Source: Escherichia coli
GTDB lineage: Bacteria > Pseudomonadota > Gammaproteobacteria > Enterobacterales > Enterobacteriaceae
Assembly (NCBI RefSeq): GCF_036507355.1
Contig: NZ_AP027877.1
DNA length: 64,000 bases
Reading direction: 5' to 3' (one strand)
In this document: positions 18,952-48,973 of the stretch, one piece after another
Layout: the number at the start of each line of letters is the position of its first letter
Position numbering within the stretch: position 1 is the stretch's first letter
Notes under the pieces: model-generated
Database searches by the model: none
What the model was told of the DNA's origin: nothing
The model's input: only the letters and a program-made list of their open reading frames with translations
Program-made: the position numbers and the translations under genes

Positions 18952-19091
18952 CTACCAGGAAGAATGAGTACTAACATTCAGGTTATACAGATAGCTAAAC
19001 AATCCCCTGCAATTTACAAAGTAATACTCATTGCGACTTCTTAATTTAAGAAAGCGCAAGGAACGTTTACCCTTGCGCTTATTATAATAAG

Positions 19092-19865
19092 TCAGGCGTC
19101 GACTTTATCCAGCGGCCATGAATCAAACAGATAGCCATCAAAATAAATATCGTCAACGTTCGAGAATTCCAGCAGACGTTGCTTAACGTTTTCCAGATGC
19201 TGCCACATTGCCAGCTTCGCCGCTCGGGCATCTTTTTTGATTAACGCGGCGAGGATCTGTTTGTGATCGCCCAACCACTCTTTGCGATACAGGCTGTCAT
19301 CCAGATGGCTGTGCAACTGGATCCACATTGGATTGTTTTCCCGCCACTGCCAGGACTGACGGAACAGCTCCACCAGCATGCTGTTATGCGTTGCTTCGGC
19401 AATAGCGAGATGGAACTGCATGTCACCGCTTTCGCTGCTGCCCGGCGCACTGGAAGCCAGTTCACGCTCTTCCAGTTGCAATGCCTGACGCATTTTGACG
19501 ATATCTTCGCGGGTAGCCTGCAGGGCGGCAAACTCGGCGATGTTGCTCTCAAGAAGCTGTCGCGCCTGCAACAGCTCAAAAGGACCCGCATCATTGCAAA
19601 CGTTGGCATCCGGACTGTCTGTGTTGTGGCTGCCTGAGCTATCAAGAACATAGATACCGGCACCCCGGCGCACTTCCACCAGCCCTTTGATCTCCAGCAT
19701 GATCAGCGCTTCACGTACCACCGTCCGCGTGACATCAAGCATTTCTGCAATTTCACGCTCCGGCGGCAACCGTTCGCCAGGATTGTACGGCGTCTTTATG
19801 ATCAGATCGCGGATCATCGCCCCGACTTCCTGGTAAGGTCTTTGCGCAGAGGTGGCAGATTTCAT
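19092..19865 (-). CDS. uxuR: GntR-family repressor of the uxu operon
   Basis: 257-aa ORF MKSATSAQRPYQEVGAMIRDLIIKTPYNPGERLPPEREIAEMLDVTRT... Confidence 0.9.
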   Translation of the reverse strand: MKSATSAQRPYQEVGAMIRDLIIKTPYNPGERLPPEREIAEMLDVTRTVVREALIMLEIKGLVEVRRGAGIYVLDSSGSHNTDSPDANVCNDAGPFELLQARQLLESNIAEFAALQATREDIVKMRQALQLEERELASSAPGSSESGDMQFHLAIAEATHNSMLVELFRQSWQWRENNPMWIQLHSHLDDSLYRKEWLGDHKQILAALIKKDARAAKLAMWQHLENVKQRLLEFSNVDDIYFDGYLFDSWPLDKVDA

Positions 19866-19901
19866 GGTGTTGTGTCCGTTAGGTGCGGTTAATCAAATTT
19901 T

Positions 19902-19937
19902 TGCCGGATGCGGCGTGAACGCCTTATCCGGCCTACA
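19902..19937. repeat. REP element
   Basis: GCCGGATGCGGCGTGAACGCCTTATCCGGCCTAC palindromic unit. Confidence 0.7.
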
Positions 19938-20079
19938 ACGGGCAATTTTACGGCACCCGTTAATCTCAAACTATACCATTAGCACTGGAAGTTGGCACGT
20001 ACAGGTGGGCAAAAAAACGAAAACTGGTCAACCAAATATCAGTTTGATTGACCAGTAAGTCTGTAGGGTAATCAGTTAG

Positions 20080-21540
20080 TTACAGCGCAGCCACACACTC
20101 GCGCGCACCGCGTTCGCACAGCTGCTGATATGCCGCCGTCACCGCGCCAACAAAGTCGGCATTCTGCGGCAGATCATCGGCAAAAATACCGCTCAGGCCC
20201 AGCAGCGCTTTCACGCGGTCTGCGCCCTGATACTGCGCGTTAATCTTCTGGAACTCGGCCAGCATCGGGTCGACCACGTCAATGGCATTACCCTGCTCAT
20301 CCACGCCCTGGGTGTAACGCATCCAGCCAGCCACGCCCAGCGCCAGGTGACGCCAGCTGCCGCCGTTTTGCAGGTGCAGACGCACCGGATCCAGCAGACG
20401 CTGCGGTAACTTCTGGCTGCCGTCCATCGCAATCTGCCAGGTACGGTGACGCAGAGACGGGTTGCTGAAACGCTCGATCAGCAGCGTCGCATAGGCGTTC
20501 AGGTCCGTACCTTCCGGCATCGACAGCGTTGGCGCTTGTTCCTGCATCATCAGGGCAAAGGCCGCTTTGCGATAATCCGGGTTAGTCATGGTGTCGGCAA
20601 TAGTTTCATAGCCGCCGAGGTAACCGAGGTATGCCAGGAAAGAGTGGCTGCCGTTCAGCATACGCAGCTTCATCATTTCGAACGGCACAACGTCTGCAAC
20701 GAACTGTGCGCCCACTTTATCCCAGTCCGGACGACCATTAACGAAGTTATCTTCAATCACCCACTGACGGAACGGTTCGCAGGCAATGGCGCACGGGTCA
20801 TAAACACCCAGCTGGTCAGCAATTTCCTGTAAGGTTTCTGGCGTCGCCGCCGGAACGATGCGGTCAACCATGGTGCACGGGAAGGTGACGTTCTCTTCAA
20901 TCCATGCCGCCAGCTGCGGGTCACGCGCCTGAGCCAGCCCCAGTACCGCGACCTTCGCCACATGACCGTTTTCACGCACGTTATCGCAGGACATCACCGT
21001 AAACGCTTTCAGCCCTTTTTCACGACGCAGACGCAGGGCTTCGACGATGTAACCAATCGCAGACTTCGGCGCAGTCGGGTTTTCCAGATCGTGCTTGATC
21101 AGCGGGTTATTGAGATCCAACTGACCGCTTGCCGCATCAGCGCAGTAGCCTTTTTCCGTGACCGTCAGAGAGACAATCGCCGTCTGCGGACGCGCCATCG
21201 CGTTGAGAATACCTTCGCAGCCGTCGATTTCCGGATGCAGCGCTTCTTTCATCGAACCGATAATTTTCAGTTCGGTGCTTTCCGCGCCTTTTTCCGCCAC
21301 GGTGTACAGCAGTTGCTGTTTTTTCAGGTTTTCAATCAGCACACGGTCGTTACCTGGCATCAGGTTAACTTCGCAGATACCCCAGTCGCTGTCGGTGCTT
21401 TCCAGCAGATGATGGGTATACAGCGCCTGGTGCGCGCGGTGAAACGCCCCGCAACCGAGATGCACAATGCGTGATTCCAGACGAGAATGCTCCCATGACG
21501 GGCGGGCAACCGGCAGATTGCTGTCAACAATAGTAGTCAT
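20080..21540 (-). CDS. uxuB: D-mannonate oxidoreductase
   Basis: 486-aa ORF in the uxuA-uxuB-uxuR arrangement. Confidence 0.9.
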   Translation of the reverse strand: MTTIVDSNLPVARPSWEHSRLESRIVHLGCGAFHRAHQALYTHHLLESTDSDWGICEVNLMPGNDRVLIENLKKQQLLYTVAEKGAESTELKIIGSMKEALHPEIDGCEGILNAMARPQTAIVSLTVTEKGYCADAASGQLDLNNPLIKHDLENPTAPKSAIGYIVEALRLRREKGLKAFTVMSCDNVRENGHVAKVAVLGLAQARDPQLAAWIEENVTFPCTMVDRIVPAATPETLQEIADQLGVYDPCAIACEPFRQWVIEDNFVNGRPDWDKVGAQFVADVVPFEMMKLRMLNGSHSFLAYLGYLGGYETIADTMTNPDYRKAAFALMMQEQAPTLSMPEGTDLNAYATLLIERFSNPSLRHRTWQIAMDGSQKLPQRLLDPVRLHLQNGGSWRHLALGVAGWMRYTQGVDEQGNAIDVVDPMLAEFQKINAQYQGADRVKALLGLSGIFADDLPQNADFVGAVTAAYQQLCERGARECVAAL

Positions 21541-21620
21541 CGTAAACTCCAGAATCCGTCTTCAGAGAGTGACGGCAAGGAAGAAGGAACCGGCACGGCG
21601 CGCAGCCATGCCGGTGGATA

Positions 21621-22805
21621 TTAACGGCTAAAGAAAGCGCGCTGGATCGCCAGTTCGACACCGCGAACTTCGGCCAGGCCTTTCAGACGACCAATTGCGG
21701 AGTAACCTGGGTTAGTTTTCTTCTTCAGGTCGTCCAGCATCTGATGACCGTGGTCCGGACGCATCGGGATCAGGTCTTCTTTGCCTTCCGCTTTACGACG
21801 GTGTTCCTCTTCAACAATCGCTTTCACCACTTCGTACATATCAACGTCACCGTTCAAGTGCGCCGCTTCGTGGAAGGTTTTCGGGTTATCTTCACGCATG
21901 GTGGAGCGCAGATGGGTGAAGTAAATACGCGGACCGAACTGCTTGATCATATCAACCAGATCGTTGTCAGCACGCACGCCGTAGGAACCGGTGCACATGG
22001 TGAAACCGTTCGCCATGCTGTTTACGGTATCAACCATCCACTGCATATCTTCAATGGTGGAAACAATGCGCGGCAGGCCGAGGATCGGGCGCGGCGGATC
22101 GTCCGGGTGAACAGCCATACGGACGCCAACTTCTTCGGCAACCGGAATAATCGCTTTCAGGAAGACGGCAAAGTTTTCGCGCAGTTTGGCTTTGTCGATA
22201 TCTTTATATAGCTCCAGGTGCTTACGGAACTGGTCGAGGGTGTACCCTTCTTCCGCGCCCGGAAGACCAGCAATGATGTTACGGGTCAGACGCGCTTTGT
22301 CTTCGTCGCTCATAGTGGCGAAGCGAACAGCTGCCTGAGCAATTTCTTCTTCGGTGTAATCCGCTTCCGCGCCTGGACGTTTCAGGATATGCATTTCGAA
22401 TGCAGCGAATTCGATCTGGTCAAAGCGCAGAGCTTTGGAGCCGTCTGGCAGCACGTATTCGAGGTCAGTACGGGTCCAGTCGAGCACCGGCATGAAGTTG
22501 TAGCACACGGTGCGAATGCCGCACTGCGCCAGGTTGCGCAGAGTCTGCTGATAGTTAGCGATCCACTGCTCATAGTTGCCAGTGTGGGTTTTGATATCTT
22601 CGTGAATTGGCACGCTTTCTACGACAGACCATACCAGGCCTGCGTCTTCAACGATCGCCTTGCGTTTGAGGATCTCTTCAACGGACCATACTTCGCCGTT
22701 CGGGATATGGTGCAGCGCGGTAACCACGCCAGTTGCGCCCGCCTGACGGACATCAGCTAAAGAAACCGGATCGTTTGGGCCGTACCAGCGCCAGGTCTGT
22801 TCCAT
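21621..22805 (-). CDS. uxuA: D-mannonate dehydratase
   Basis: From [28 protein letters not shown]; the track ORF carries a 12-codon extension. Confidence 0.9.
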
Positions 22806-34875: not shown

Positions 34876-35592
34876 ATGAAAAAGGCTAAAATACTTTCTG
34901 GCGTATTATTACTGTGCTTTTCGTCCCCATTAATTTCTCAGGCTGCGACACTGGACGTACGTGGTGGATATCGTAGTGGAAGCCACGCCTATGAGACTCG
35001 ACTCAAAGTCAGTGAGGGATGGCAAAATGGATGGTGGGCAAGCATGGAAAGTAATACCTGGAATACCATTCATGATAATAAAAAGGAAAATGCCGCACTC
35101 AATGATGTTCAGGTTGAAGTTAATTACGCGATTAAACTTGATGATCAATGGACGGTGCGCCCGGGAATGTTAACGCATTTTAGCAGCAACGGCACACGCT
35201 ACGGACCCTACGTAAAACTGTCCTGGGACGCGACAAAAGATCTTAATTTTGGCATTCGCTATCGTTACGACTGGAAAGCTTACCGACAACAAGACTTATC
35301 TGGTGATATGTCTCGTGATAACGTTCATCGTTGGGATGGATATGTCACTTACCATATTAATAGTGATTTCACCTTCGCATGGCAAACGACGCTATACAGT
35401 AAACAGAACGATTATCGCTATGCAAACCATAAGAAATGGGCGACGGAAAATGCATTTGTTCTACAATACCATATGACGCCCGATATTACGCCATACATAG
35501 AATATGACTACCTTGACCGTCAGGGTGTTTACAACGGCAGAGATAATTTATCGGAAAACAGTTATCGCATTGGTGTGTCATTTAAACTGTAG
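34876..35592 (+). CDS. nanC: N-acetylneuraminic acid outer-membrane channel
   Basis: From MKKAKILSGVLLLCFSSPLISQAATLDVRGGY. Confidence 0.85.
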   Translation: MKKAKILSGVLLLCFSSPLISQAATLDVRGGYRSGSHAYETRLKVSEGWQNGWWASMESNTWNTIHDNKKENAALNDVQVEVNYAIKLDDQWTVRPGMLTHFSSNGTRYGPYVKLSWDATKDLNFGIRYRYDWKAYRQQDLSGDMSRDNVHRWDGYVTYHINSDFTFAWQTTLYSKQNDYRYANHKKWATENAFVLQYHMTPDITPYIEYDYLDRQGVYNGRDNLSENSYRIGVSFKL

Positions 35593-35611
35593 TAGACAGG
35601 AGACAGTCACA

Positions 35612-36718
35612 ATGAATAAAACAATAACGGCGCTTACTATCATAATGGCTTCATTTGCCGCAAACGCGTCTGTATTACCGGAAACTCCTGTGCCATTTAA
35701 AAGTGGTACCGGAGCAATTGATAACGACACTGTCTACATTGGTTTAGGTAGCGCAGGTACGGCATGGTACAAGCTGGATACACAGGCCAAAGATAAAAGA
35801 TGGACAGCGTTAGCTGCATTCCCTGGCGGACCGAGAGATCAAGCAACCTCTGCATTTATTGATGGCAATCTGTATGTGTTTGGCGGCATTGGCAAAAACA
35901 GCGAGGGCTTGACTCAGGTATTTAATGACGTACACAAATACAACCCCAAAACCAATAGCTGGGTTAAATTGATGTCGCACGCGCCGATGGGCATGGCGGG
36001 CCATGTGACTTTTGTACACAACGGCAAGGCTTATGTTACTGGCGGTGTTAACCAGAATATCTTCAATGGCTATTTTGAAGATCTCAACGAAGCTGGAAAA
36101 GATTCAACCGCTATAGATAAAATCAACGCCTACTATTTTGACAAAAAAGCAGAAGATTATTTCTTCAATAAGTTTCTGTTGTCTTTTGATCCCTCAACAC
36201 AGCAATGGAGTTACGCTGGCGAATCTCCCTGGTACGGAACGGCTGGTGCGGCGGTTGTGAATAAAGGTGATAAAACCTGGCTTATTAATGGCGAAGCCAA
36301 ACCAGGATTGCGAACGGATGCCGTATTTGAACTTGACTTCACCGGTGATAATTTAAAATGGAATAAGCTTGATCCCGTCTCATCACCAGATGGCGTCGCT
36401 GGCGGTTTTGCGGGGATAAGCAATGATTCTCTTATATTTGCTGGAGGGGCCGGATTCAAAGGTTCACGAGAAAATTACCAGAACGGTAAGAACTATGCGC
36501 ATGAAGGCCTGAAAAAATCATATAGCGCTGATATTCATCTTTGGTATAACGGGAAATGGGATAAATCGGGTGAATTATCGCAAGGTCGGGCCTACGGAGT
36601 ATCATTGCCCTGGAATAATAGTTTATTAATTATTGGCGGTGAAACTGCAGGCGGCAAAGCAGTGATGGATTCAGTTTTAATTTCTGTGAAGGATAATAAA
36701 GTCACAGTACAAAACTAA
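35612..36718 (+). CDS. nanM: N-acetylneuraminate mutarotase (Kelch-repeat propeller)
   Basis: From MNKTITALTIIMASFAANA (signal peptide); repeated GG motifs. Confidence 0.85.
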   Translation: MNKTITALTIIMASFAANASVLPETPVPFKSGTGAIDNDTVYIGLGSAGTAWYKLDTQAKDKRWTALAAFPGGPRDQATSAFIDGNLYVFGGIGKNSEGLTQVFNDVHKYNPKTNSWVKLMSHAPMGMAGHVTFVHNGKAYVTGGVNQNIFNGYFEDLNEAGKDSTAIDKINAYYFDKKAEDYFFNKFLLSFDPSTQQWSYAGESPWYGTAGAAVVNKGDKTWLINGEAKPGLRTDAVFELDFTGDNLKWNKLDPVSSPDGVAGGFAGISNDSLIFAGGAGFKGSRENYQNGKNYAHEGLKKSYSADIHLWYNGKWDKSGELSQGRAYGVSLPWNNSLLIIGGETAGGKAVMDSVLISVKDNKVTVQN

Positions 36719-36723
36719 CGCTT

Positions 36724-36747
36724 CAGGGCCCCGGTAAAGGGGCCCTG
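36724..36747 (+). terminator. Hairpin after nanM
   Basis: CAGGGCCCC-GGTAAA-GGGGCCCTG. Confidence 0.5.
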
Positions 36748-36782
36748 CTATCAATTTGTCATTTCAATTACGCGAAATTTAT

Positions 36783-37763
36783 ATGAACGCAATAATATCG
36801 CCTGATTATTACTATATTCTTACCGTTGCTGGTCAGTCTAATGCCATGGCGTATGGCGAAGGACTGCCATTACCGGACAGGGAAGATGCGCCTCATCCCA
36901 GAATTAAACAATTAGCGAGATTTGCGCATACGCATCCCGGAGGCCCGTCATGTCACTTTAACGACATTATTCCACTGACTCACTGCCCACACGATGTTCA
37001 GGATATGCAGGGTTATCACCATCCTCTGGCAACGAATCATCAAACACAGTACGGCACCGTTGGCCAGGCACTGCATATAGCACGGAAATTACTGCCCTTT
37101 ATTCCTGATAATGCAGGGGTTCTCATCGTTCCGTGTTGCCGTGGCGGATCGGCTTTTACCGCGGGCAGCGAAGGGACATATTCAGAACGGCACGGAGCCA
37201 GCCATGATGCTTGTCGTTGGGGAACGGATACTCCGCTATACCAGGATTTAGTCAGCAGAACGCGAGCCGCACTGGCAAAAAATCCGCATAACAAATTCCT
37301 CGGCGTATGCTGGATGCAAGGCGAATTTGACTTAATGACCAGTGACTACGCGTCACACCCTCAACACTTTAATCATATGGTTGAAGCCTTTCGTAGGGAT
37401 CTAAAACAATACCATTCTCAGCTTAATAATATTACTGACGCACCGTGGTTTTGCGGCGATACCACCTGGTACTGGAAAGAAAATTTCCCTCATGCGTATG
37501 AAGTTATTTATGGCAATTATCAAAATAATGTTTTAGCCAATATTATTTTCGTCGACTTCCAGCAACAAGGTGAAAGAGGACTGACGAACGCGCCTGATGA
37601 AGACCCGGACGATTTAAGCACGGGATATTACGGTTCAGCGTACCGGTCACCGGAGAACTGGACGACGGCACTGCGAAGCAGTCATTTCAGCACGGCAGCC
37701 CGTCGGGGGATTATTTCTGACAAGTTTGTAGAAGCAATTTTGCAGTTTTGGCGCGAAAGGTGA
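36783..37763 (+). CDS. nanS: 9-O-acetyl-N-acetylneuraminate esterase
   Basis: From MNAIISPDYYYILTVAGQSNAMAYG. Confidence 0.85.
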   Translation: MNAIISPDYYYILTVAGQSNAMAYGEGLPLPDREDAPHPRIKQLARFAHTHPGGPSCHFNDIIPLTHCPHDVQDMQGYHHPLATNHQTQYGTVGQALHIARKLLPFIPDNAGVLIVPCCRGGSAFTAGSEGTYSERHGASHDACRWGTDTPLYQDLVSRTRAALAKNPHNKFLGVCWMQGEFDLMTSDYASHPQHFNHMVEAFRRDLKQYHSQLNNITDAPWFCGDTTWYWKENFPHAYEVIYGNYQNNVLANIIFVDFQQQGERGLTNAPDEDPDDLSTGYYGSAYRSPENWTTALRSSHFSTAARRGIISDKFVEAILQFWRER

Positions 37764-37770
37764 GCGTTCA

Positions 37771-38025
37771 TTAATTTGATTTATTCGCATCCATCAGCGC
37801 TTTTAACTGCTCCGGCGTAAACGGTGGTTTGCGTCGGTGCAACATCGCATGGCAATTAGGGTACACAGGCAGCAAATCATTAACTGGATCCAGCTGGTAA
37901 TCCTCTTTAATGGCTGACAGCGGCACCAGGTGATGCACATGGATAAAGCCTTCAGCGATATCACCATAGATCTTCACCAGATCAACACCGCATATTCCGT
38001 ATGAACCATACGGAGATTTAACCAT
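37771..38025 (-). CDS. Short HNH-nuclease-motif protein (84 aa), possibly a truncated gene
   Basis: HVHHLVPLS...NCHAMLH motif; its start overlaps the divergent next gene on a CATG. Confidence 0.45.
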   Translation of the reverse strand: MVKSPYGSYGICGVDLVKIYGDIAEGFIHVHHLVPLSAIKEDYQLDPVNDLLPVYPNCHAMLHRRKPPFTPEQLKALMDANKSN

Positions 38026-38593
38026 GACCTACAAATACAACCCCTTCTGGCAGCAACGTATTCGTGAGACGGTGCGGCACGCACTGAATGTTCATCCCCG
38101 CCTGACGGCATTGCGGGTTGACCTGCGTCTCCCGGATGTACCGGCAGCAACGGACGCAGCTGTGATATCCCGCTTCATCAATGCCCTGAAAGCCCGAATC
38201 GACGCTTACCAGAAACGTAAGCATCGGGAAGGTAAACGCGTGCATCCCACAACCCTGCATTACGTCTGGGCCCGGGAGTTTGGGGAGTGCAAAGGTAAAA
38301 AACACTATCACCTGATGCTGCTGGTCAACCGGGATACCTGGTGTCGTGCCGGTGATTACCGCGCTCCGGAGTCTCTGGCCGGGATGATTAAACAGGCGTG
38401 GTGCAGTGCCCTGGGAGTGGATGTCGGGTGCCATGCCACGCTGGTGCATTTTCCGGCCTGGCCGGCGGTGTGGCTGGCGCGTAATGATGACACCGGCTTT
38501 CAGCAAGTGCTGGAACGTGCTGACTATCTGGCGAAGGAGTATACCAAAGCTCACTGCACCGGTGAGCGCAATTTTGGCTGTAGCCGGAGTTGA
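38024..38593 (+). CDS. YagK/YfjJ-family (inovirus Gp2-like) island protein
   Basis: 189-aa ORF MTYKYNPFWQQRIRETVRHALNVHPRLTALRVDLRLPD...; family assignment from memory only. Confidence 0.4.
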   Translation: MTYKYNPFWQQRIRETVRHALNVHPRLTALRVDLRLPDVPAATDAAVISRFINALKARIDAYQKRKHREGKRVHPTTLHYVWAREFGECKGKKHYHLMLLVNRDTWCRAGDYRAPESLAGMIKQAWCSALGVDVGCHATLVHFPAWPAVWLARNDDTGFQQVLERADYLAKEYTKAHCTGERNFGCSRS

Positions 38594-38852
38594 GCACGAC
38601 TGGCGCGCCAATATCCGGCAAACCAAAAGTATGGGTTGTTGTCTGGCGGCAACGATGTATCCACTCGCCCACTGACTGTTTTTTACGTCAGTGTTCCATT
38701 GTGTGACAACCACAGTGCTGTAACAGCAACCAGCCTGCTTTACCCAAACTCCAGTCCAGATTTTAACTGAACCGCCATTCACACCCTGACCACGCTGCCC
38801 GTACCGGGACGGCTGTTGCCTGCGTGTCGTCTGGCGGCTAAGGAATATGACT

Positions 38853-39254
38853 ATGTACGCAAAATCCTTTATCGCTCTTGATGGCAACGGACGTCTGACG
38901 GGCGCCCGTACTGCACAGGCCGCACCTTATGCTCACTACACCTGCCACTTGTGTGGCAGTGCACTCAGATACCATCCGCAATACGACACTGAACTTCCCT
39001 GGTTTGAACACACTGACGACAGGCTGACAGAGCACGGTCAACAGTGCCCTTATGTCAGGCCGGAGCGCAGAGAAATACAGTTGATTAAACGTCTGCAGCA
39101 ATTCGTACCGGATGCCTTACCCGTGGTGCGTAAAGCCAGCTGGCACTGCAGACAATGTCACCACGATTATTATGGGGAGCAGTACTGCACACACTGCCAG
39201 ACCGGAGGATTCAGTATTCCCCGGACAACTCAGGAGGAAATATGCGAATTCTGA
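38853..39254 (+). CDS. Cys-rich (double CxxC) hypothetical protein, paralogue A
   Basis: CHLCG...PWFEH...CRQCHHDYYGEQYCTHCQTG; RBS-like AAGGAA upstream of the ATG at 38853. Confidence 0.45.
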   Translation: MYAKSFIALDGNGRLTGARTAQAAPYAHYTCHLCGSALRYHPQYDTELPWFEHTDDRLTEHGQQCPYVRPERREIQLIKRLQQFVPDALPVVRKASWHCRQCHHDYYGEQYCTHCQTGGFSIPRTTQEEICEF

Positions 39255-39676
39255 ACTGTTATATGGCGAATGACAGCAAAGGCCATTTTGTTACGGCGAA
39301 AGAAGCTGCGAAGCACAACCGACAGGACGTTTTGTGCTGTGTGTCCTGTGGATGCCCGTTAACACTTCAGCGGGGCAATGACGGACAACCACCGTGGTTT
39401 GAACATGACCAGATGACTGTCGCTGAAAAAATCCTGCTGCGATGTACCTGGCTTGACCCGGCGGAGAAAGAGGCCCGTCGTTTGCATCTGCAGGGCATGA
39501 CGGTTCCGGATTATACGGTGAAGGTGAGAAAGTGGTTTTGTGTGATGTGTGACGAAGATTATGAGGGGGAAAAGTGCTGCCCACGCTGCGGTACCGGGGT
39601 ATACAGCAGGGCGTGGGGGCGGCAGGAGGTGCCGTCGGAAGATGCCAGGGCTGATAATCCGTTACAGAGGCTGTAA
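39242..39676 (+). CDS. Cys-rich (double CxxC) hypothetical protein, paralogue B
   Basis: CVSCGCP...PWFEH...CVMCDEDYEGEKCCPRCGTG; AGGAGG RBS inside the 3' end of paralogue A; 13-bp overlap. Confidence 0.45.
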   Translation: MRILNCYMANDSKGHFVTAKEAAKHNRQDVLCCVSCGCPLTLQRGNDGQPPWFEHDQMTVAEKILLRCTWLDPAEKEARRLHLQGMTVPDYTVKVRKWFCVMCDEDYEGEKCCPRCGTGVYSRAWGRQEVPSEDARADNPLQRL

Positions 39677-40030
39677 TGGTTGCCTCCGGAGCAGTTTGCG
39701 GTGATGCCTTTCCCGGGAATGGATTGCCAGTGCGGGGACTGTGGAGCTTAATTCCGGTGTTGGTGGCCTTTCCGTTGATTTTATGCCAACAGCCCCCTGT
39801 GACTGACAGGCTGCCTCGTCATTCCATTCGTATCTCCAGTAACAGGGGGTTGTATTGTATTTTATTGTGCCGGTTCAGGTGTGCGTTTCCCGGCGCGTCT
39901 GCACCGGCTTAACCAAATTCAACAGGGATAAAATAGTGGTAAGCGTACAGCCTGAACCGTCTGGTCAGAATCTGACGAATTAGACAAAGTGGTGTCCACC
40001 AAATAAGTAGTGGGAACCAAAGTGTCAGAT

Positions 40031-40411
40031 ATGCAGAAAAATGTGACTCCCGGCAGGCGAAAAGGCTGCCCTAATTATCCTCCCGAATTTAAACAGCTGC
40101 TCGTTGCTGCCTCCTGTGAACCCGGGATATCCATCTCAAAACTTGCTCTTGAAAATGGCATTAACGCCAATCTGTTGTTCAAATGGCGACAACAATGGCG
40201 CGAGGGAAAGCTGCTATTACCTTCTTCAGAGAGCCCCCAGCTACTTCCTGTGACTCTCGATGCAGCTGCCGAACAGCCAGAATCGCTCGCAGAGGACCCG
40301 GAAACCCTCAGTATCAGCTGTGAGGTAACGTTCCGGCACGGGACGCTCCGCTTCAATGGCAATGTCAGCGAAAAGCTCCTGACTCTGCTGATACAGGAAC
40401 TGAAGCGATGA
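40031..40411 (+). CDS. IS66 accessory protein (orfA)
   Basis: MQKNVTPGRRKGCPNYPPEFKQLLVAASCEPGISISKLALENGINANLLFKWRQQW (helix-turn-helix-like). Confidence 0.7.
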   Translation: MQKNVTPGRRKGCPNYPPEFKQLLVAASCEPGISISKLALENGINANLLFKWRQQWREGKLLLPSSESPQLLPVTLDAAAEQPESLAEDPETLSISCEVTFRHGTLRFNGNVSEKLLTLLIQELKR

Positions 40412-40755
40412 TCCCGTTACCTTCCGGGACCAAAATTTGGCTGGTTGCCGGTATCACCGATATGAGAAATGGCTTCAACGGCCTGGCTGCGAAAGTACAA
40501 ACGGCGCTGAAAGACGATCCCATGTCCGGCCATGTTTTCATTTTCCGGGGCCGCAGCGGCAGTCAGGTTAAACTGCTGTGGTCCACCGGTGACGGACTGT
40601 GCCTCCTGACCAAACGGCTGGAGCGTGGGCGCTTCGCCTGGCCGTCAGCCCGTGATGGCAAAGTGTTCCTTACGCAGGCGCAGCTGGCGATGCTGCTGGA
40701 AGGTATCGACTGGCGACAGCCCAAGCGGCTGCTGACCTCCCTGACCATGCTGTAA
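40408..40755 (+). CDS. IS66 TnpB-like protein (orfB)
   Basis: MIPLPSGTKIWLVAGITDMRNGFNGLAAKVQ...; ATGA overlap with orfA. Confidence 0.75.
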   Translation: MIPLPSGTKIWLVAGITDMRNGFNGLAAKVQTALKDDPMSGHVFIFRGRSGSQVKLLWSTGDGLCLLTKRLERGRFAWPSARDGKVFLTQAQLAMLLEGIDWRQPKRLLTSLTML

Positions 40756-40804
40756 ATCTCTTTATCCTGGTTGTCACAGAATAAGCCCGGTAAAATACGG
40801 GCTT

Positions 40805-42190
40805 ATGAACGACATCTCTTCTGACGACATCTTCCTGCTAAAACAGCGCCTGGCCGAACAGGAAGCGCTGATCCACGCCCTGCAGGAAAAGCTGAGCAAC
40901 CGGGAGCGCGAAATAGACCATCTGCAGGCGCAGCTGGATAAACTCCGCCGGATGAACTTCGGCAGTCGTTCCGAAAAAGTCTCCCGCCGTATCGCACAAA
41001 TGGAAGCCGATCTGAACCGGCTTCAGAAAGAGAGCGATACGCTGACTGGTAGGGTGTATGACCCGGCAGTACAGCGTCCGTTGCGTCAGACCCGCACCCG
41101 TAAGCCGTTCCCTGAATCACTACCCCGTGACGAAAAGCGACTGTTGCCTGCGGCGCCGTGCTGCCCGAACTGCGGCGGTTCACTGAGCTATCTGGGCGAG
41201 GATACCGCCGAACAGCTGGAGTTGATGCGTAGCGCCTTCCGGGTTATCCGGACGGTACGGGAAAAACATGCCTGTACTCAGTGCGATGCCATCGTGCAGG
41301 CACCTGCACCTTCGCGGCCCATCGAGCGGGGTATCGCCGGACCGGGGCTGCTGGCCCGCGTGCTGACCTCGAAGTATGCAGAGCACACCCCGCTGTATTG
41401 CCAGTCAGAAATATACGGCCGGCAAGGTGTGGAGCTGAGCCGTTCACTGCTGTCGGGCTGGGTGGATGCATGCTGCCGGCTGCTGTCTCCGCTGGAAGAG
41501 GCGCTTCATGGCTATGTCATGACTGACGGCAAACTCCATGCCGATGATACCCCGGTCCAGGTACTGCTGCCGGGTAATAAGAAGACGAAGACCGGGCGGT
41601 TGTGGGCGTATGTTCGTGATGACCGCAATGCCGGGTCAGCGTTGGCACCTGCAGTGTGGTTCGCTTACAGCCCGGACAGAAAAGGCATCCATCCGCAGAC
41701 TCATCTTGCTTGCTTCAGCGGTGTGCTGCAAGCGGATGCGTACGCCGGGTTCAACGAGCTGTATCGCAATGGTGGGATAACGGAAGCTGCCTGCTGGGCT
41801 CATGCCCGCCGAAAGATCCACGATGTGCACGTCCGCATCCCGTCAGCACTGACGGAAGAAGCCCTAGAGCAGATCGGTCAGTTGTACGCCATAGAGGCGG
41901 ATATAAGGGGAATGCCGGCAGAGCAGCGGCTTGCTGAACGTCAGCGAAAAACGAAACCGCTGTTGAAATCCCTGGAAAGCTGGTTGCGTGAAAAGATGAA
42001 GACCCTGTTCTTCGGCTCTGGCCATGGTGGTGAGCGGGGAGCGCTACTGTACAGCCTGATCGGGACGTGCAAACTGAATGACGTGGATCCAGAAAGCTAC
42101 CTTCGCCATGTGCCTGGCGTCATAGCAGACTGGCCGGTCAACCGGGTCAGCGAACTGCTTCCGTGGCGCATAGCACTGCCAGCTGAATAA
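40805..42190 (+). CDS. IS66-family transposase (orfC)
   Basis: 461-aa ORF with an N-terminal coiled coil and a CxxC...CxxC zinc-ribbon region. Confidence 0.75.
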   Translation: MNDISSDDIFLLKQRLAEQEALIHALQEKLSNREREIDHLQAQLDKLRRMNFGSRSEKVSRRIAQMEADLNRLQKESDTLTGRVYDPAVQRPLRQTRTRKPFPESLPRDEKRLLPAAPCCPNCGGSLSYLGEDTAEQLELMRSAFRVIRTVREKHACTQCDAIVQAPAPSRPIERGIAGPGLLARVLTSKYAEHTPLYCQSEIYGRQGVELSRSLLSGWVDACCRLLSPLEEALHGYVMTDGKLHADDTPVQVLLPGNKKTKTGRLWAYVRDDRNAGSALAPAVWFAYSPDRKGIHPQTHLACFSGVLQADAYAGFNELYRNGGITEAACWAHARRKIHDVHVRIPSALTEEALEQIGQLYAIEADIRGMPAEQRLAERQRKTKPLLKSLESWLREKMKTLFFGSGHGGERGALLYSLIGTCKLNDVDPESYLRHVPGVIADWPVNRVSELLPWRIALPAE

Positions 42191-42428
42191 CACATCCCCG
42201 TCAATACGGCCCTCGCTGTACGCTTACTTTTGTTCGGACTGCTTATGGCCTTTTTCCACTGGTGTAGCAGGAAAGTTAACCGGCTGCCACCATGAGATGA
42301 CGTGTAAACCGTGCAGGCATGTTTTCACGTGGTGACGCTTTCATTGGGGGTCTACGCCGGAACCCCAATATTGTTCACATACATGAATTTGAAAAACTAA
42401 GCGATACTGCTGTCCGTACCTTATAAAC

Positions 42429-43787
42429 TTATTTCAACGCTTCCGGCAGCGTCACAATCCACAGTTCACTGTCAGACTCCGGTTTCTCCAGTGGCTTCAC
42501 TCTGAGGGTCGTTTCAACCTGCTTGTCGTCAAGCGTCAGCTTTCCTTCCGCGTTCACCCGATAATCCTTGAATGTCTTGCCCTCGACCGGATGTTGCATC
42601 GCCACCTTCACGCCAAAGTCGTTATCGTTCGCCACCGCCAGCGTTTTGCTGTCGATCAGCGCCAACCCTTCAGCCTTCTCCTGCTGCCAGCCCAAGGAGC
42701 GCAGATCAACAACCTGCGTTTTCTGCGCAAGGGTAATGCCGCGCTGTGACAGGGTTTTCTCATCATCAAACTCCGGATACTCACCCGGCTTGTCGAAGCC
42801 TGACAGGTCGCTCGCCTTATTGAGATCGACCTCGTAAATCAGGTTACGCATTCTGTTGTTTTTATCTCTTCCCTGTTCGATCAGCAGGATGTGCTGGTTA
42901 TCGAGCGCCACGATGTCTCCGATTTTAGCGTCGCTGTTTTTGCTGTAGGCCGCGCTGTCGATAGGATAACCGTACATCGCGGTTTTTCCGCTTGCCGGAT
43001 CGAAGCTCACCAGACGCGTAAACAGCGCCTTTTTCTTGCTCTTAGCGTCGATATCCAGCGTACTTTGCACGGCGACAATAATACGCCCGTCCGGCATACG
43101 GGTGAGGCCTTCAAAGCCGCGGTTCGCCTGACGCCATTTGAGGATATTTGGCAAACCGCCCGCAATCGCTTTTTCCCCTTCCGCCGCCTGCGGACCGTGG
43201 ATTGCCAGGATTTTCCCTTTACTGTCGATGTTAATCAGGAACGGGCCATACTCATCGCACAGCCAGTAACCTCCTTTACCATCCGGAGTGATCCCTTCCG
43301 TATCCAGCCCGCGATTATCCCCCTTCAGTCTATGTAACGTGTCGCTGAAGGCCACTTCATTGGTGGAGCCAATCACGTCGCTTGCCAGCGGCAGACCGTT
43401 GATCGCGCCTTTATCGTCATGCAGAGGACGGGGATCGATGGCCTCCGCTTTGCCGTTTTGTACACGAATCGTCATCAGCAGCGGCGCGAAATCTGGCGTA
43501 ACGAAAATTTTAGTTTCGTTTTTCCCCTCTTTCGGTGAATCCGCGTTCGGACCGCGATCGGTAATGGTTGCGAATGTCAGGGCATCGCCCTGTTTACCGG
43601 TGAACAGCAGGCCAGAACCTATCCCAACCGGAAGGCCGTTCGGGAATGCACTGGCAAATGCGCCGGCGTAGTTCACGTGCGTGCCTTCTGGAAAACTGAC
43701 GACATAGCGCTCAGCCGTAGGTTGTGCCGCCAGGGCAGAGAAAGAGAGCGTACAACCGATTAGCACGGGAATAATTTTTCTTTTCAT
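42429..43787 (-). CDS. Secreted beta-propeller protein, phytase-like esterase family (tentative)
   Basis: Signal peptide MKRKIIPVLIGCTLSFSALAA; repeated blades with TEGI / FEGL / AEGL and DEYGP motifs. Confidence 0.45.
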   Translation of the reverse strand: MKRKIIPVLIGCTLSFSALAAQPTAERYVVSFPEGTHVNYAGAFASAFPNGLPVGIGSGLLFTGKQGDALTFATITDRGPNADSPKEGKNETKIFVTPDFAPLLMTIRVQNGKAEAIDPRPLHDDKGAINGLPLASDVIGSTNEVAFSDTLHRLKGDNRGLDTEGITPDGKGGYWLCDEYGPFLINIDSKGKILAIHGPQAAEGEKAIAGGLPNILKWRQANRGFEGLTRMPDGRIIVAVQSTLDIDAKSKKKALFTRLVSFDPASGKTAMYGYPIDSAAYSKNSDAKIGDIVALDNQHILLIEQGRDKNNRMRNLIYEVDLNKASDLSGFDKPGEYPEFDDEKTLSQRGITLAQKTQVVDLRSLGWQQEKAEGLALIDSKTLAVANDNDFGVKVAMQHPVEGKTFKDYRVNAEGKLTLDDKQVETTLRVKPLEKPESDSELWIVTLPEALK

Positions 43788-44071
43788 ATTGTTAGCATCC
43801 ATAAAGTGAAGATCACACTACACCATAAAGAAGAAACGAGTCAGGAAAATGACATCGAATGGCAACATGCGCGGGCCTGAGGCCAAAGAAATGTAAAACA
43901 CTGTTGTTATTTGTAACAACGGAAACATTTACGGAAATTATTTGTCTTTCTTCGTGATCAAAAATGCTGTGTCTTGTTGGATTGGAGTGATGAGGGCTGC
44001 GTTTAGGAAACGCCCTATATTGTACGGTTGCATTATCGCGGTAGGGGTAATGCACGTGTCAGTATGATGAG

Positions 44072-44200
44072 CTGACCACACTCACGTGGGTGGACTGGTA
44101 TAACAATCGACGATTGCTGGAAAGGCAGGGCCATATCCCACCGGCAGAAGCAGAAAAAGCTTATTATGCTTCCATCGGAAACGATGATCTGGCAGCCTGA
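44072..44200 (+). pseudogene. C-terminal remnant of a DDE (rve-type, IS3-like) transposase
   Basis: Translates to ...WVDWYNNRRLLERQGHIPPAEAEKAYYAS...*, a typical transposase C-terminus; no upstream body. Confidence 0.4.
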
Positions 44201-44298
44201 GTTCACAGATAAAACACTCTCCAGGAAACCCGGGGCGGTTCACTTAGCCGCGTGTCCATTATTGCTGGATAAGATCATAACGAGGTAATGACTCCAAC

Positions 44299-44802
44299 TT
44301 ATTGATAGTGTTTTATGTTCAGATAATGCCCGATGACTTTGTCATGCAGCTCCACCGATTTTGAGAACGACAGCGACTTCCGTCCCAGCCGTGCCAGGTG
44401 CTGCCTCAGATTCAGGTTATGCCGCTCAATTCGCTGCGTATATCGCTTGCTGATTACGTGCAGCTTTCCCTTCAGGCGGGATTCATACAGCGGCCAGCCA
44501 TCCGTCATCCATATCACCACGTCAAAGGGTGACAGCAGGCTCATAAGACGCCCCAGCGTCGCCATCGTGCGTTCACCGAATACGTGCGCAACAACCGTCT
44601 TCCGGAGCCTGTCATACGCGTAAAACAGCCAGCGCTGGCGCGATTTAGCCCCGACATAGCCCCACTGTTCGTCCATTTCCGCGCAGACGATGACGTCACT
44701 GCCCGGCTGTATGCGCGAGGTTACCGACTGCGGCCTGAGTTTTTTAAGTGACGTAAAATCGTGTTGAGGCCAACGCCCATAATGCGGGCTGTTGCCCGGC
44801 AT
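44299..44802 (-). CDS. insB: IS1 InsB (transposase frame)
   Basis: 167-aa ORF ...[42 protein letters not shown]... Confidence 0.85.
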
Positions 44803-44996
44803 CCAACGCCATTCATGGCCATATCAATGATTTTCTGGTGCGTACCGGGTTGAGAAGCGGTGTAAGTGAACTGCAGTTGCCATGTTTTACGACAGTGAGA
44901 GCAGAGATAGCGCTGATGTCCGGCGGTGCTTTTGCCGTTACGCACCACCCCGTCAGTAGCTGAACAGGAGGGACAGCTGATAGAAACAGAAGCCAC
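44721..44996 (-). CDS. insA: IS1 InsA
   Basis: 91-aa [46 protein letters not shown]... Confidence 0.9.
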
Positions 44997-45065
44997 TGGA
45001 GCACCTCAAAAACACCATCATACACTAAATCAGTAAGTTGGCAGCATCACCGGCCTCGCATTTAA

Positions 45066-45911
45066 TTATTCATTTAAAGATTCAAGAAATGTCCAGCCTT
45101 TATGAGTAACATAATACATTTGTCCTTTTGCCCCTCTTTCAATCACAAAATCAAAGGATAACAGTTCGTTAAGTGCGCCCTCCCAACGGGCTACCTCTCT
45201 AGCCGAACTTCCACCAAAGGATTGATTTCCCGCTTGAATATCCGTGCCACCTAAATGCCTTATCACATAAATTGTTCCGCTATCATCGACACATGCCAAT
45301 TTCAGCAAACTGAGTGCATCGGCGGACAAATTACTTTCTGGCAAAGATTGACTTGTATTCGCATCAGGAGAATTGTTAATGGTAGATATAAGAGAAGACA
45401 AATAAGGGCTACTAGAAATAATTATCGAAAGTTGCCTACGGACTTTGTCTTTGAAATCAGATAAGTCATTAAAAGACTCTATCAATCCCTTTTGCATGCA
45501 CTCAATTTTGAACAATTTAAGAGACTCATATTGTTCTCTATCAAGGCTTTCAGGGGCAACAGGCTTTGAGGAAAAGTAAATCATTGCCGGTTTTCCCGCA
45601 TTCAAATGACGGTGAATTTCTTCGACTGTTCCGCTGGCCTCGTTCCCAGTCGGTGAGCCTAGACGAGTCCAAAACACACCGATTAATAAATCACAATCTA
45701 CTAATAATCTTTGATTAATCAACTCCTGAGGCCTAACTCCTAATTCGGGTGATGTATGAGTTTCCCATCCAATTGGTGTCAACATTACTTTTGAACGAGC
45801 TGAATTTATATCATTCCACTCATGGATCATTTCACGAATGACTTGTCTCTCTTCAGCGACATCACCAGGAGAAGCAATCATTACAGGGATAACAGTTGCT
45901 GTGTAAGCCAT
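45066..45911 (-). CDS. Hypothetical protein with DUF4062-like N-terminal domain and an uncharacterised C-terminal domain
   Basis: N-terminus VMIASPGDVAEERQVIREMIHEW ... DCDLLIGVFWTRLGSP ... SGTVEEIHRHLNAGKPAMIYF resembles the DUF4062 pattern as I recall it; GGAGAG RBS 6 nt upstream; visibly AT-rich. Confidence 0.45.
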   Translation of the reverse strand: MAYTATVIPVMIASPGDVAEERQVIREMIHEWNDINSARSKVMLTPIGWETHTSPELGVRPQELINQRLLVDCDLLIGVFWTRLGSPTGNEASGTVEEIHRHLNAGKPAMIYFSSKPVAPESLDREQYESLKLFKIECMQKGLIESFNDLSDFKDKVRRQLSIIISSSPYLSSLISTINNSPDANTSQSLPESNLSADALSLLKLACVDDSGTIYVIRHLGGTDIQAGNQSFGGSSAREVARWEGALNELLSFDFVIERGAKGQMYYVTHKGWTFLESLNE

Positions 45912-45924
45912 AAACTCTCCATAT

Positions 45925-46485
45925 TCAATCGGTAATAGCTGCTACAGTCGCTCTTGAAACGCCATATTGACGCGCTAACGCACTGATACTCAAACCGCTA
46001 TTCTTTTTCTCTAAAATCTCTCTACGGGCTTCTGACGCGATTTTAGGAGGTCTGCCCAATTTCTTACCTTCGGCTTTTGCTCGTGATAGTCCCGCCTGAG
46101 TGCGCTCAATCAGCAGATCACGCTCCATCTCCGCAACCGCGGCGAGCATAGATAATAGCAACTTCCCAGCGGCAGAAGTGAGATCTGTGTTACCAAGCTG
46201 GTGGACAAGAACCTTGATATTACGGTCAGCCAGCGCCCTTACCGTTTGCAGGACGTCAATCGCATCACGCCCCAGACGATCAAGCTTCGCTACCACCAAC
46301 GTTTCACCATCGCGGATTTTATTGAGCATTTCAGAAAATGCTTTACGTTGCATTGCCGGAACCTTCCCGCTAACAACATCGGCAAACCAGTAATCAATTT
46401 GCCACCCAGCCTGCCCAAGCTCCAGCCGTTGGTTCTCAGTATCCTGCTGCGATGTCGAAACACGTCCGTAGCCAAAAGTTGCCAT
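45925..46485 (-). CDS. Small serine recombinase (resolvase/invertase family), about 186 aa
   Basis: From MATFGYGRVSTSQQDTENQ (catalytic Ser region) with a C-terminal helix-turn-helix (LSISALARQYGVSRATV); GGGGAG RBS upstream of the ATG at 46485. The track ORF carries a 23-codon extension. Confidence 0.8.
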   Translation of the reverse strand: MATFGYGRVSTSQQDTENQRLELGQAGWQIDYWFADVVSGKVPAMQRKAFSEMLNKIRDGETLVVAKLDRLGRDAIDVLQTVRALADRNIKVLVHQLGNTDLTSAAGKLLLSMLAAVAEMERDLLIERTQAGLSRAKAEGKKLGRPPKIASEARREILEKKNSGLSISALARQYGVSRATVAAITD

Positions 46486-46507
46486 TGTTATCTCCCCATC
46501 TGACCCC

Positions 46508-46605
46508 TGCCAGAAAACGAGGCCAACATTAGGATGGCCTGCCAGAAAAGCCAAGGCTATTTTTCCAACAGTGTGAAAGCGTGCGATTGGGAGGTGCCAG
46601 AAAAC
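46508..46605. promoter_or_regulatory. Three direct copies of TGCCAGAAAA(C/G) upstream of the recombinase gene, plus a short GGCCA...TGGCC palindrome; candidate recombinase binding or regulatory site
   Basis: Copies read at 46508, 46540 and 46595; the GGCCAACATTAGGATGGCC palindrome lies between the first two. Confidence 0.35.
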
Positions 46606-47460
46606 GGTCGATTGATGACACCATCAAACACTAACAGTGTGCCCCGGCAACGCGCGCCTGCAACGGTTGTCTCGGATGAGCAAAATCTTAGGGTTTTCTC
46701 AGCGACCCCTGACGCGCGGGCACGCACATGCTCACGGGGGCGCGGGCGAGCTATACAGTTGAGGGAGGGGCAACCATAAGCGTGCAATTTTTCAAGCCGG
46801 GGATTCAGCTATAGGCTAACGGTAGAATGCGGCTTGTAGAGGGTTGTGCGCACATACCCAGTACAATCGCATTACTCCACGCGCACAAACCCCGGAGAGC
46901 CGCTTGCGGTGGGGGTTTAAGAGGTACAATTTTTGGTTCGGGTCATAAAGGACTTTTGAGAGCTGACTTAGCTTATTTAAACTGCATTCGTCTTGGCTAT
47001 GGAGACACGAGGCAGCTCAAGTTTTGTTCAAAACTTTGCAATATTTTGGTTCGATCTCATGTTCTCGTGCTAAAGAAATCAGCACTCGATCAAATTTTCA
47101 TTTTTTTTCTGAAACATTGACATACAGCCTAAGCCTTAAGGCACGTAGGGTTGGTCGAAATTTCCCTTTGACAACCTCAATTTAACCTCAAAATCAACCC
47201 TTGTACTGCAAAGAATCCTAACTAGAATGCTGAACATGTAGGGGGGAATCTTATTAACACACCCTATATGTTGTGCTCATGTATAAATGATGGGCATAAA
47301 AAAACCGGAGTCACCTGCGTGAATCCGGTCTATGAAGCATGACCGCCATGAGTCTGCAAACTCATAACGATTGTTAGCCTCACTATCGTTTCTAACGGCT
47401 CGATTGTGCCCGGCTTGGTTGGTTATGTAAACAGTAAGATAAAATCAAAAGGAACGATCC

Positions 47461-48375
47461 ATGCTTATTCAGAAAAAGCGTATTCGAAATATTGATAATT
47501 ACATACCTAACTTTGATGGCCGTGATATCTACATTGCACATTCTTTGCCAGATGCGGGGAAAACGGACTCTATTGGTTTCTCAAGTCAAAGAGCTTTAGG
47601 TGAAGAAGTCCTCCCCAAGATTTTAGGGCCAATAACCAGATTCAATGCTAATGGCAAATCAGTACCTGACAAAACAGCACCTAAAGAAACTGCATACAGA
47701 CAAATTTCATGGACTAGAAAGCAATGGATCGGAGGGGGCGCAACTCAAGAAGTTACTGACACTCGTGAAATTGAGTATAAGCGCTACAAGAGAATCCTCA
47801 CCCCTCCACCAAGCATAGAGTTAAAGATTGTAGAGAATCTTCAAGGGGAGAAGTTGATCATCTCTCCAAAGCTAAGTTTGACAGCTAACAACAAAGAGTT
47901 AGTGGCTCACTGCATTAATCTTTTTTTAGAGCTTTTTGGGTTGTGCGAAACTGTTGACGACCAACTTAATACCATCGTTAAAAGTAAATCTATAAAACTA
48001 AACTGGAGCCTCCTGCCTCAGGGTCAACAGCCTTGGAGTACTATCGGTTCAAAAATCCTTTCAGCTATTAAGATCAGGGGAAAGGGCAATACCGCTGTTG
48101 TTGAAGGCAGACTTGAACTTATCAATAGTAAAAAACCAGATTTCGTAGCGGTTGGGCAAGCTGGGTTCCAAGGCTACGTGATATTTGGGTTCACAGGCCA
48201 AAACATTTACGTGCTAGAAAGCTCACAATGTAATAACGCAACTTATATACTTAACAATAATTGGCAGCAGTTATCCCAGCTAACTAAAGCCGAAATACTA
48301 GACGGAAACTTGCACCATGCCCGTGTCATCCACCGTGTAAACTGGGCAGCAGAAATACTTAAATACTTACCATAA
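47461..48375 (+). CDS. Hypothetical protein (304 aa), no domain recognised
   Basis: ATG preceded by an AAGGAA RBS at about 8-nt spacing; visibly AT-rich; no homologue recognised by eye. Confidence 0.5.
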   Translation: MLIQKKRIRNIDNYIPNFDGRDIYIAHSLPDAGKTDSIGFSSQRALGEEVLPKILGPITRFNANGKSVPDKTAPKETAYRQISWTRKQWIGGGATQEVTDTREIEYKRYKRILTPPPSIELKIVENLQGEKLIISPKLSLTANNKELVAHCINLFLELFGLCETVDDQLNTIVKSKSIKLNWSLLPQGQQPWSTIGSKILSAIKIRGKGNTAVVEGRLELINSKKPDFVAVGQAGFQGYVIFGFTGQNIYVLESSQCNNATYILNNNWQQLSQLTKAEILDGNLHHARVIHRVNWAAEILKYLP

Positions 48376-48888
48376 AGCGCCGGACGCGCGGGAATGAACC
48401 CCCGCGCACTTTCAAACATACCGCAATAGAATCCATAAAGCCCCGTTGGTGGTAAGACAACAAGCGGAGCCTCTGGCGACTACATCACAGTTATGTCAGT
48501 TAGTGAGGCTTATCAGGATGACCATGTACCCAAGGGGAGCGAGGCCGAACCGCTGGCAGAGCTTGCATATGGTCTGCAAGTACCGTGACCACCATAAACC
48601 TGTTTATCCCCTGCGGCGTCTCGCGACAGCGGCAGAACGGGGGCATCGGGCTAAAATGCGCTTCACTAAAAGTTTTTGGGATTGTTTAGAGACAGTGGCT
48701 ACGTCATAGCTTTCAAGTTGAGTCAGTACGTGTTTGACGCTTGGAACTACACGCCGCTATGAGTTAACATCCCAATTACCACTATCAACCACAGCGGCTT
48801 TTTCAAGGGACATAACAGAGCATTTCTTACAGGCAAAAGAGACAGATTTTATTGTCTAACTACCTGTATTGTAAGGAATTTAGTGACT

Positions 48889-48973
48889 TGGTGCCGAAGG
48901 CCGGACTCGAACCGGCACGTATTTCTACGGTTGATTTTGAATCAACTGCGTCTACCGATTTCGCCACTTCGGC
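48889..48973 (-). tRNA. leuX: tRNA-Leu (leuX type, CAA anticodon)
   Basis: Reverse complement reads GCCGAAGTGGCGAAATCGGTAGACGCAGTTGATTCAAAATCAACCGTAGAAATACGTGCCGGTTCGAGTCCGGCCTTCGGCACCA, a cloverleaf with a long variable arm and CCA end. Confidence 0.9.

Follow-up and report, generated by a model that had tools for sequence, protein, structure and literature searches.

Two open reading frames that start head-to-head on the same four bases raise the question of whether such an arrangement is a compact module kept by selection or the trace of an accident. The case at hand lies in a stretch of 64,000 nucleotides of the Escherichia coli chromosome, here called the window, in which the gene order reads uxu/gntP/fim, nanC-nanM-nanS, a short island, leuX, yjgR, pepA and valS. 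The original prediction, made from the letters of the window alone, had placed the start codons of a small HNH-motif ORF on the minus strand and of a YagK-like ORF on the plus strand on a shared CATG. These coordinates are exact, and the bases AT within the CATG belong to both ATGs. We conclude that the head-to-head CATG very probably arose incidentally, through a single large deletion in the island that leuX anchors on this E. coli chromosome. The features on which the argument rests are listed here; L003 and L004 denote the corresponding loci of strains 2017.18.02CC and HCM-25C-3.

36783..37763, plus strand: nanS (sialate O-acetylesterase), last gene of nanC-nanM-nanS (Pfam SASA; MS1665 annotation, 981 nt)
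37771..38025, minus strand: remnant ORF of 84 aa (MVKSPYGSYGICGVDL...HVHH...NCHAMLH)
37771..37994, minus strand: 3' remnant of an McrA-like HNH endonuclease gene, 224 of 651 nt, codons 144-216 and stop (match to L003)
37995..38025, minus strand: accidental 5' extension of the remnant, consisting of the ATG, nine codons and the first base of the junction codon (matches island DNA of L002 and L003)
37993..37994: deletion junction with the 2-bp microhomology TA (window against L001 and L002; BLAST end points 37994 and 37993)
37996..38014, plus strand: perfect 8-bp hairpin TCCGTATG-AAC-CATACGGA, native to the leader of the Gp2-family gene, with a 3' arm that overlaps the Shine-Dalgarno sequence
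38012..38015, plus strand: Shine-Dalgarno sequence GGAG of the Gp2-family gene, 8 nt before the ATG (sequence reading)
38023..38026: CATG common to both divergent start codons (sequence reading)
38024..38593, plus strand: intact YagK/YfjJ ('inovirus Gp2 family') gene, 189 aa (Pfam PF11726; HYH and DYLAK motifs)
38853..39676, plus strand: two DUF7828/zinc-ribbon genes after the Gp2-family gene (Pfam; annotation of L002 and L003)
48889..48973, minus strand: tRNA-Leu(CAA) gene leuX, anchor of the island (ARAGORN)

Overlapping divergent starts had been called uncommon, and within the window this holds: the mechanical ORFs of 60 aa or more in the 64 kb (115 on the plus and 123 on the minus strand) include just one divergent pair with overlapping start codons, 37771..38025 and 38024..38593. 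Such a CATG overlap is nevertheless cheap to arise by accident. Of the 25 plus-strand ORFs in the window that start with ATG and have at least 150 aa, 11 carry a C at position -1, which turns the start codon into CATG. In the minus-strand frame a TAG occupies 38029-38031, two codons upstream of the ATG of the 84-aa ORF, and this ATG is therefore merely the first start codon past that stop. The same strand also carries a TTG-start ORF of 289 aa (38018-38887) that runs antisense to the entire Gp2-family gene and the spacer following it; no matching annotation was found for it in related genomes and it is probably a shadow ORF.

The first thing to establish is the position at which the window ceases to resemble one set of genomes and begins to resemble another. 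In a three-way comparison the sequence of the HNH side matches up to 37994 and that of the island side from 37993, so that the joint reads CACCGCA-TA-TTCCGTATG with the 2 bp TA common to both parents. Left of this point lie nanS and the last 73 codons of a 216-aa McrA-like HNH endonuclease gene, and right of it follows island DNA that starts 30 nt upstream of the ATG of the Gp2-family gene. The original prediction, a junction left by recombination or deletion beside a truncated HNH gene, was thus right about the break and the truncation and wrong about the site, because the junction is not at the CATG but 30 nt to its left, within the minus-strand ORF. A megablast query of 1.2 kb (window 37600-38800) has matches in 5,251 of 5,426 complete E. 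coli genomes, and every match in this collection begins or ends at 37993/37994, the left parts being annotated in RefSeq as nanS/HNH endonuclease and the right parts as 'inovirus Gp2 family protein'. In none of the 5,426 complete E. coli genomes, which do not include the source strain, is at least 80% of this query covered, and a 301-bp megablast query across the junction likewise gave 0 of 5,426. Exact 30-mer scans for the junction were negative in the JGI metagenomes and in the GTDB species representatives, and a look-up of the exact 84-aa product among the gene products called in public assemblies found no entry. A conserved pair of two full-length genes, the outcome that would have spoken for a native arrangement, is not what the comparison returned: the HNH gene is truncated and the arrangement occurs in none of the complete genomes.

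The truncation of the HNH gene had been suspected from the overlap of the start codons, and the full-length homologue bears this out. WP_001037966.1 has 216 aa, of which the window retains residues 144-216, preceded by MVKSPYGSYG and the junction codon; the native start codon and 143 of the 216 residues at the N-terminus are missing, and the native upstream region of the gene is lost from the window as well. The ten leading codons MVKSPYGSYG, ATG included, are the reverse complement of the leader of the Gp2-family gene, and the start codon of the HNH ORF is therefore accidental. The only purine-rich run upstream of it, AGGGG, lies 15 nt away, too far to serve as a Shine-Dalgarno sequence for the 84-aa ORF. 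The product, as translated from the window, reads MVKSPYGSYGICGVDLVKIYGDIAEGFIHVHHLVPLS...NCHAMLHRRK... and keeps the HNH core residues (His...Asn...His) in HVHH...NDLLPVYPNCHAMLH, which aligns with the HNH domain of EcoKMcrA. Its match to the Pfam HNH profile (PF01844) reaches 18.6 bits, below the cut-off of 21.4, over profile positions 13-47 of 47; the full-length parent, named 'HNH endonuclease' in RefSeq, scores 17.9 bits over positions 1-47. The structural zinc site is incomplete, since of the CNVC pair of the parent the window retains just the second Cys, in GICG. As what is left of this gene, the 84-aa ORF is a pseudogene. As the His and Asn of the core are kept, some residual activity of the peptide is conceivable.

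Further details of the HNH gene may be recorded here. At 37825-37842 on the minus strand the window and 2017.18.02CC read VYPNCH, where the EPEC allele has VCPNCH and EcoKMcrA has LCPNCH, so that in this allele, full-length copies included, Tyr takes the place of one Cys of the second zinc-binding pair. A 29-codon ORF at 37682-37771 on the minus strand, antisense to the 3' end of nanS, corresponds to an annotated YthB/'hypothetical protein'; the overlap of its ATG with the stop codon of the HNH gene (TAATG) suggests that translation of the two is coupled in strains with an intact HNH gene. In other strains the parent gene has a phosphorothioate-dependent restriction enzyme and McrBC as neighbours and hence sits in a defence-gene neighbourhood.

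The other partner of the pair is not truncated. The ATG and the length of 570 nt are as annotated in CV839-06, 2017.18.02CC, A19 and K_EC180 (e.g. WP_000221545.1), and the 189-aa protein aligns with K-12 YfjJ from the first residues (MTY...) onwards, which together identify the YagK-like gene as complete. It matches the Pfam profile YagK_YfjJ_C over all its positions (1-170 of 170; E=9.7e-48, 162.7 bits against a cut-off of 25.8). HYH and DY(L/M)xK are invariant in a four-sequence alignment that includes K-12 YfjJ and YagK, and a match to Pfam REP_ORF2-G2P is borderline (26.4 bits, cut-off 27.8). By sequence, no relatives of the protein were found in the PDB, and neither NCBIfam nor PADLOC gave a match for this gene or for the first zinc-ribbon gene. 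The Gp2 module is a multi-copy component of complete E. coli genomes and occurs at a median of 2 places per genome, and at 7 at the most.

What lies between the two ends in other strains tells how they came together. Window positions 35000-37994 correspond to 863-3857 of L003 at 99.9% identity, and 37993-41395 to 18847-22259 at 99.2%, both collinear and in the same orientation as in 2017.18.02CC. The 14,991 bp in between (L003 3858-18848) are missing from the window; measured against HCM-25C-3 the gap is 9,193 bp. Since no close parent genome is available, the best complete genome being only 99.0% identical to the window over the left 24 kb (14000-37994), the size of the deletion varies with the comparator between 9 and 15 kb. 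By the annotation of L003 the missing stretch comprises the first 143 HNH codons, a fragment of a phosphorothioate-dependent restriction endonuclease gene, DUF957 and DUF5983 proteins, a CbtA/YeeU toxin-antitoxin pair, DUF987, JAB (JAB/RadC), antirestriction, DUF932 and DUF905 proteins, Ag43, a YeeP-type GTPase, small regulators including Hha, and a small minus-strand ORF. These include the usual CbtA/CbeA, Ag43, YeeP and Hha island genes. The full HNH gene is covered to 80% or more in 1,239 of the 5,426 genomes, and at least 80% of the leader and start of the Gp2-family gene in 3,435 of the 3,573 genomes that carry the leader, which also aligns across paralogues. Because the joint cuts both a widespread HNH gene and a widespread leader, the state of the window is the derived one, and we are dealing with a deletion here and not with an insertion elsewhere. 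The joint has the features of a deletion scar: collinear flanks, a missing interior, a few shared bases and no mobile element. As a separate matter, the 3 kb adjoining the junction are 99.9% identical to 2017.18.02CC, despite at most 99.0% for any complete E. coli genome in RefSeq over window 14000-37994, and the region is mosaic.

Seen from its leuX anchor, the island ends at the junction, next to nanS. The stop codon of nanS (37761-37763) is separated by 7 nt from that of the HNH remnant, with which it is convergent. The island now spans about 11 kb (37994-48973) and holds the Gp2-family gene, the DUF7828/zinc-ribbon pair, an IS66, a phytase-like esterase, an IS1 and a resolvase; among its ORFs of at least 150 aa no integrase was found. 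It is a decayed, heavily reduced island. Inside its IS66 transposase gene the alignment to both L003 and L004 breaks at 41395-41489, where about 93 nt of the window have no counterpart in these strains; tnpC is annotated there as frameshifted, while the window has an ORF of 461 aa.

Truncated copies of the HNH gene beside nanS are not confined to the window. In other E. coli lineages a common remnant of 106 nt occupies the same place after nanS, and in MS1665 105 of these 106 nt are annotated by RefSeq as a pseudogene (M9O79_RS19275, 'incomplete; missing N-terminus'). O157-type strains keep 48 nt at this locus and K-12 has no HNH remnant there. The window resembles the MS1665-type remnants in the gene concerned, in its position beside nanS and in the 5' truncation that leaves a 3' remnant. 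It differs in the length kept, 224 nt compared with 106 or 48 nt, and in the partner sequence, which is the leader of the Gp2-family gene in the window and a phosphorothioate-dependent restriction gene or a transposase fragment in the other lineages. Judged by these alignments, the truncations in other lineages are independent events. The end of the leuX island that adjoins nanS is thus a boundary that has been eroded repeatedly, with at least four truncation states of the HNH gene in E. coli.

For the Gp2-family gene the deletion had consequences outside the coding sequence. The gene is complete and has kept its Shine-Dalgarno sequence and the hairpin, and it has lost about 170 nt of conserved leader. 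In L003 this deleted part of the leader contains a promoter-like site, TTTACA-16-GAAAAT, at 18714-18741. Promoter and terminator scans, which report consensus matches only, gave neither a sigma-70-like promoter nor a terminator-like site between 37763 and 38024. The earlier remark that the shared CATG leaves no room for independent promoters agrees with this absence of a sigma-70-like site, and the native upstream regions are in the deleted stretch. The gene would now be silent or transcribed only by read-through from nanCMS, a source that we infer because no terminator-like site separates nanS from it.

The hairpin that remains deserves a description of its own. The RNA is predicted to fold with -9.9 kcal/mol (z = -4.2), the DNA that carries it reads TCCGTATGAACCATACGGA, and it occurs once in the window. 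Among paralogues the arms are conserved and the loop varies, with 3 or 8 nt. An Rfam search over 37400-39000 with E values up to 1 gave no RNA family match. Strong inverted repeats stand immediately 5' of the ATG in three Gp2/YagK subfamilies, and they are unrelated to one another: the window type, TCCGTATG-AAC-CATACGGA at -28; the yagK type (L011, upstream of K-12 yagK), TACGGTCT-GCTAT-AGACCGTA at -43; and the 'Gp2-B' type (L025, about 1820-1853), a bulged TTCTTCCTGTGTT-ACAG-AACACGAGGAAGAA that ends at the ATG. In the window type and the Gp2-B type the repeat covers the Shine-Dalgarno sequence. These inverted repeats may represent a family-wide translational or operator element. A scan of viral contigs for YagK relatives returned 12 loci; a test of the hairpin for covariation would need more of them, and ones less close to the K-12 types. 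In two other strains the window-type block of leader, hairpin, Shine-Dalgarno sequence and ATG survives without the gene, at 2501-2578 of L025 (MB06171) and 2501-2545 of L024 (NRZ14408). In these islands 46 nt take the place of 626 nt that contain all of the coding sequence following the ATG, and the block stands downstream of a different Gp2-type gene and upstream of zinc-ribbon genes. Its place among other genes makes the block a mosaic boundary in other islands.

How else could the arrangement be explained? One might regard it as selected, with a mini-HNH nuclease and a Gp2 gene forming a divergent and compact two-gene module. Both ORFs are open, the shorter one retains HVHH...N...NCH...H, and the pair is the only one of its kind in the window. 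However, a module that is found in none of 5,426 genomes, whose nuclease would begin with ten codons of antisense leader, would have neither a Shine-Dalgarno sequence at working distance nor a promoter-like site, and would lack the first Cys of the CxxC pair together with the entire N-terminal domain, has next to no likelihood, all the more as the native arrangement of both genes is a different one and is widespread. The uniqueness of the junction, which was found only in this window among all collections searched, could also be read as a sign of an error in assembly or sequence construction, namely a misjoin through the multi-copy Gp2 island module, whose copy number per genome would provide the opportunity. 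Yet a misjoin would be expected at the edge of a repeat, and the break is not at such an edge: paralogues share the leader well upstream of -30, and the left break falls within a single-copy gene. The flanks are moreover collinear and oriented as in related strains, as a simple deletion predicts, and natural truncations of this HNH gene, arisen independently, occur commonly. A misassembly at the junction is, on these alignments, unlikely, and we assign this reading only a very small probability.

A different proposal concerns not the deletion itself but the choice of its end point, which the hairpin might have set, either through breakage during replication or because the HUH-like Gp2-family protein nicked a cognate site beside its own gene. 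Only 2 nt separate the end point from the base of the perfect 8-bp hairpin, HYH and DYLAK in the protein resemble HUH and YxxK motifs and add to its borderline REP_ORF2-G2P match, and in other islands a mosaic boundary coincides with the hairpin block. But no recurrent break at this place is seen among the listed best matches (best place per genome) in the 3,573 leader-bearing genomes, other mosaic boundaries lie elsewhere (L003 18803 and 18880), and the joint shows a microhomology of just 2 bp, while the HNH side has no structure to match the hairpin. Nicking by this family is putative, a literature search on YagK/YfjJ having found nothing on function, and a single event cannot establish a mechanism. 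That the hairpin set the end point therefore seems extremely improbable. A broader form of the proposal holds that the 30 nt kept, hairpin and Shine-Dalgarno sequence, would be a self-contained cis element of HUH-like Rep-type proteins, and that DNA breakage directed to this place by the hairpin or by the protein would account for a deletion ending 2 nt from the base of the stem. The inverted repeats of the three subfamilies, the survival of the block without its gene and its role as a mosaic boundary would fit, and the element, if real, would be either a translational switch that sequesters the Shine-Dalgarno sequence or a nick or origin site. We nevertheless regard this as highly improbable.

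Our preferred reading, a single large deletion, runs as follows. An ancestor like 2017.18.02CC or HCM-25C-3 carried nanS, the convergent 216-aa HNH gene, 9-15 kb of island DNA and the Gp2-family gene with its leader. Illegitimate recombination then joined HNH codon 143/144 to leader position -30 via the TA microhomology. The leftover HNH frame is by chance open through 31 nt of antisense leader and ends at CAT, the complement of the bases that precede and overlap the ATG of the Gp2-family gene (C-ATG). We also considered a deletion via CATACG, a 6-nt repeat with one copy at the parental left break point and another in the hairpin's right arm. This candidate was rejected: the joints predicted by recombination at CATACG, or by the stem with the left arm, would read ...CCGCATACGGAG... 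or ...CACCG joined to AACC..., and the observed joint differs from them. For annotation it follows that 37771-37994 should be entered as an HNH endonuclease pseudogene fragment missing its N-terminus and not as a gene, and that the YagK/YfjJ gene should be marked as having lost its promoter. Wider curiosity is limited to the conserved hairpin over the Shine-Dalgarno sequence before Gp2/YagK-family genes.

The two genes and the scar can each be placed beside known systems. The 216-aa parent of the remnant resembles McrA-type enzymes, i.e. modification-dependent Type IV enzymes, by sequence, and every one of its matches to them lies below curated thresholds: it aligns weakly with the head domain of ScoMcrA (PDB 5zmm; residues 24-86, E about 1e-3) and with the HNH domain of EcoKMcrA (PDB 6ghc; residues 123-198, E about 0.02), and PADLOC gives weak mREase_IV (Type IV restriction) matches. 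The N-terminal domain is entirely missing from the window copy. The Gp2-family gene corresponds to the YagK/YfjJ family of CP4-type cryptic elements and E. coli pathogenicity islands, with the full domain, the same start and the usual downstream partners present. Elsewhere the family has a small minus-strand ORF and Hha upstream as well as the conserved leader, and all of these are missing from the window because of the deletion. Microhomology-mediated (illegitimate) deletions erode genomic islands and cryptic prophages. The scar described here shares with them the 2-bp microhomology, the loss of a contiguous block, the collinear flanks and a junction free of IS elements, and nothing distinctive sets it apart. 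It is ordinary island decay by illegitimate recombination, already known in kind.
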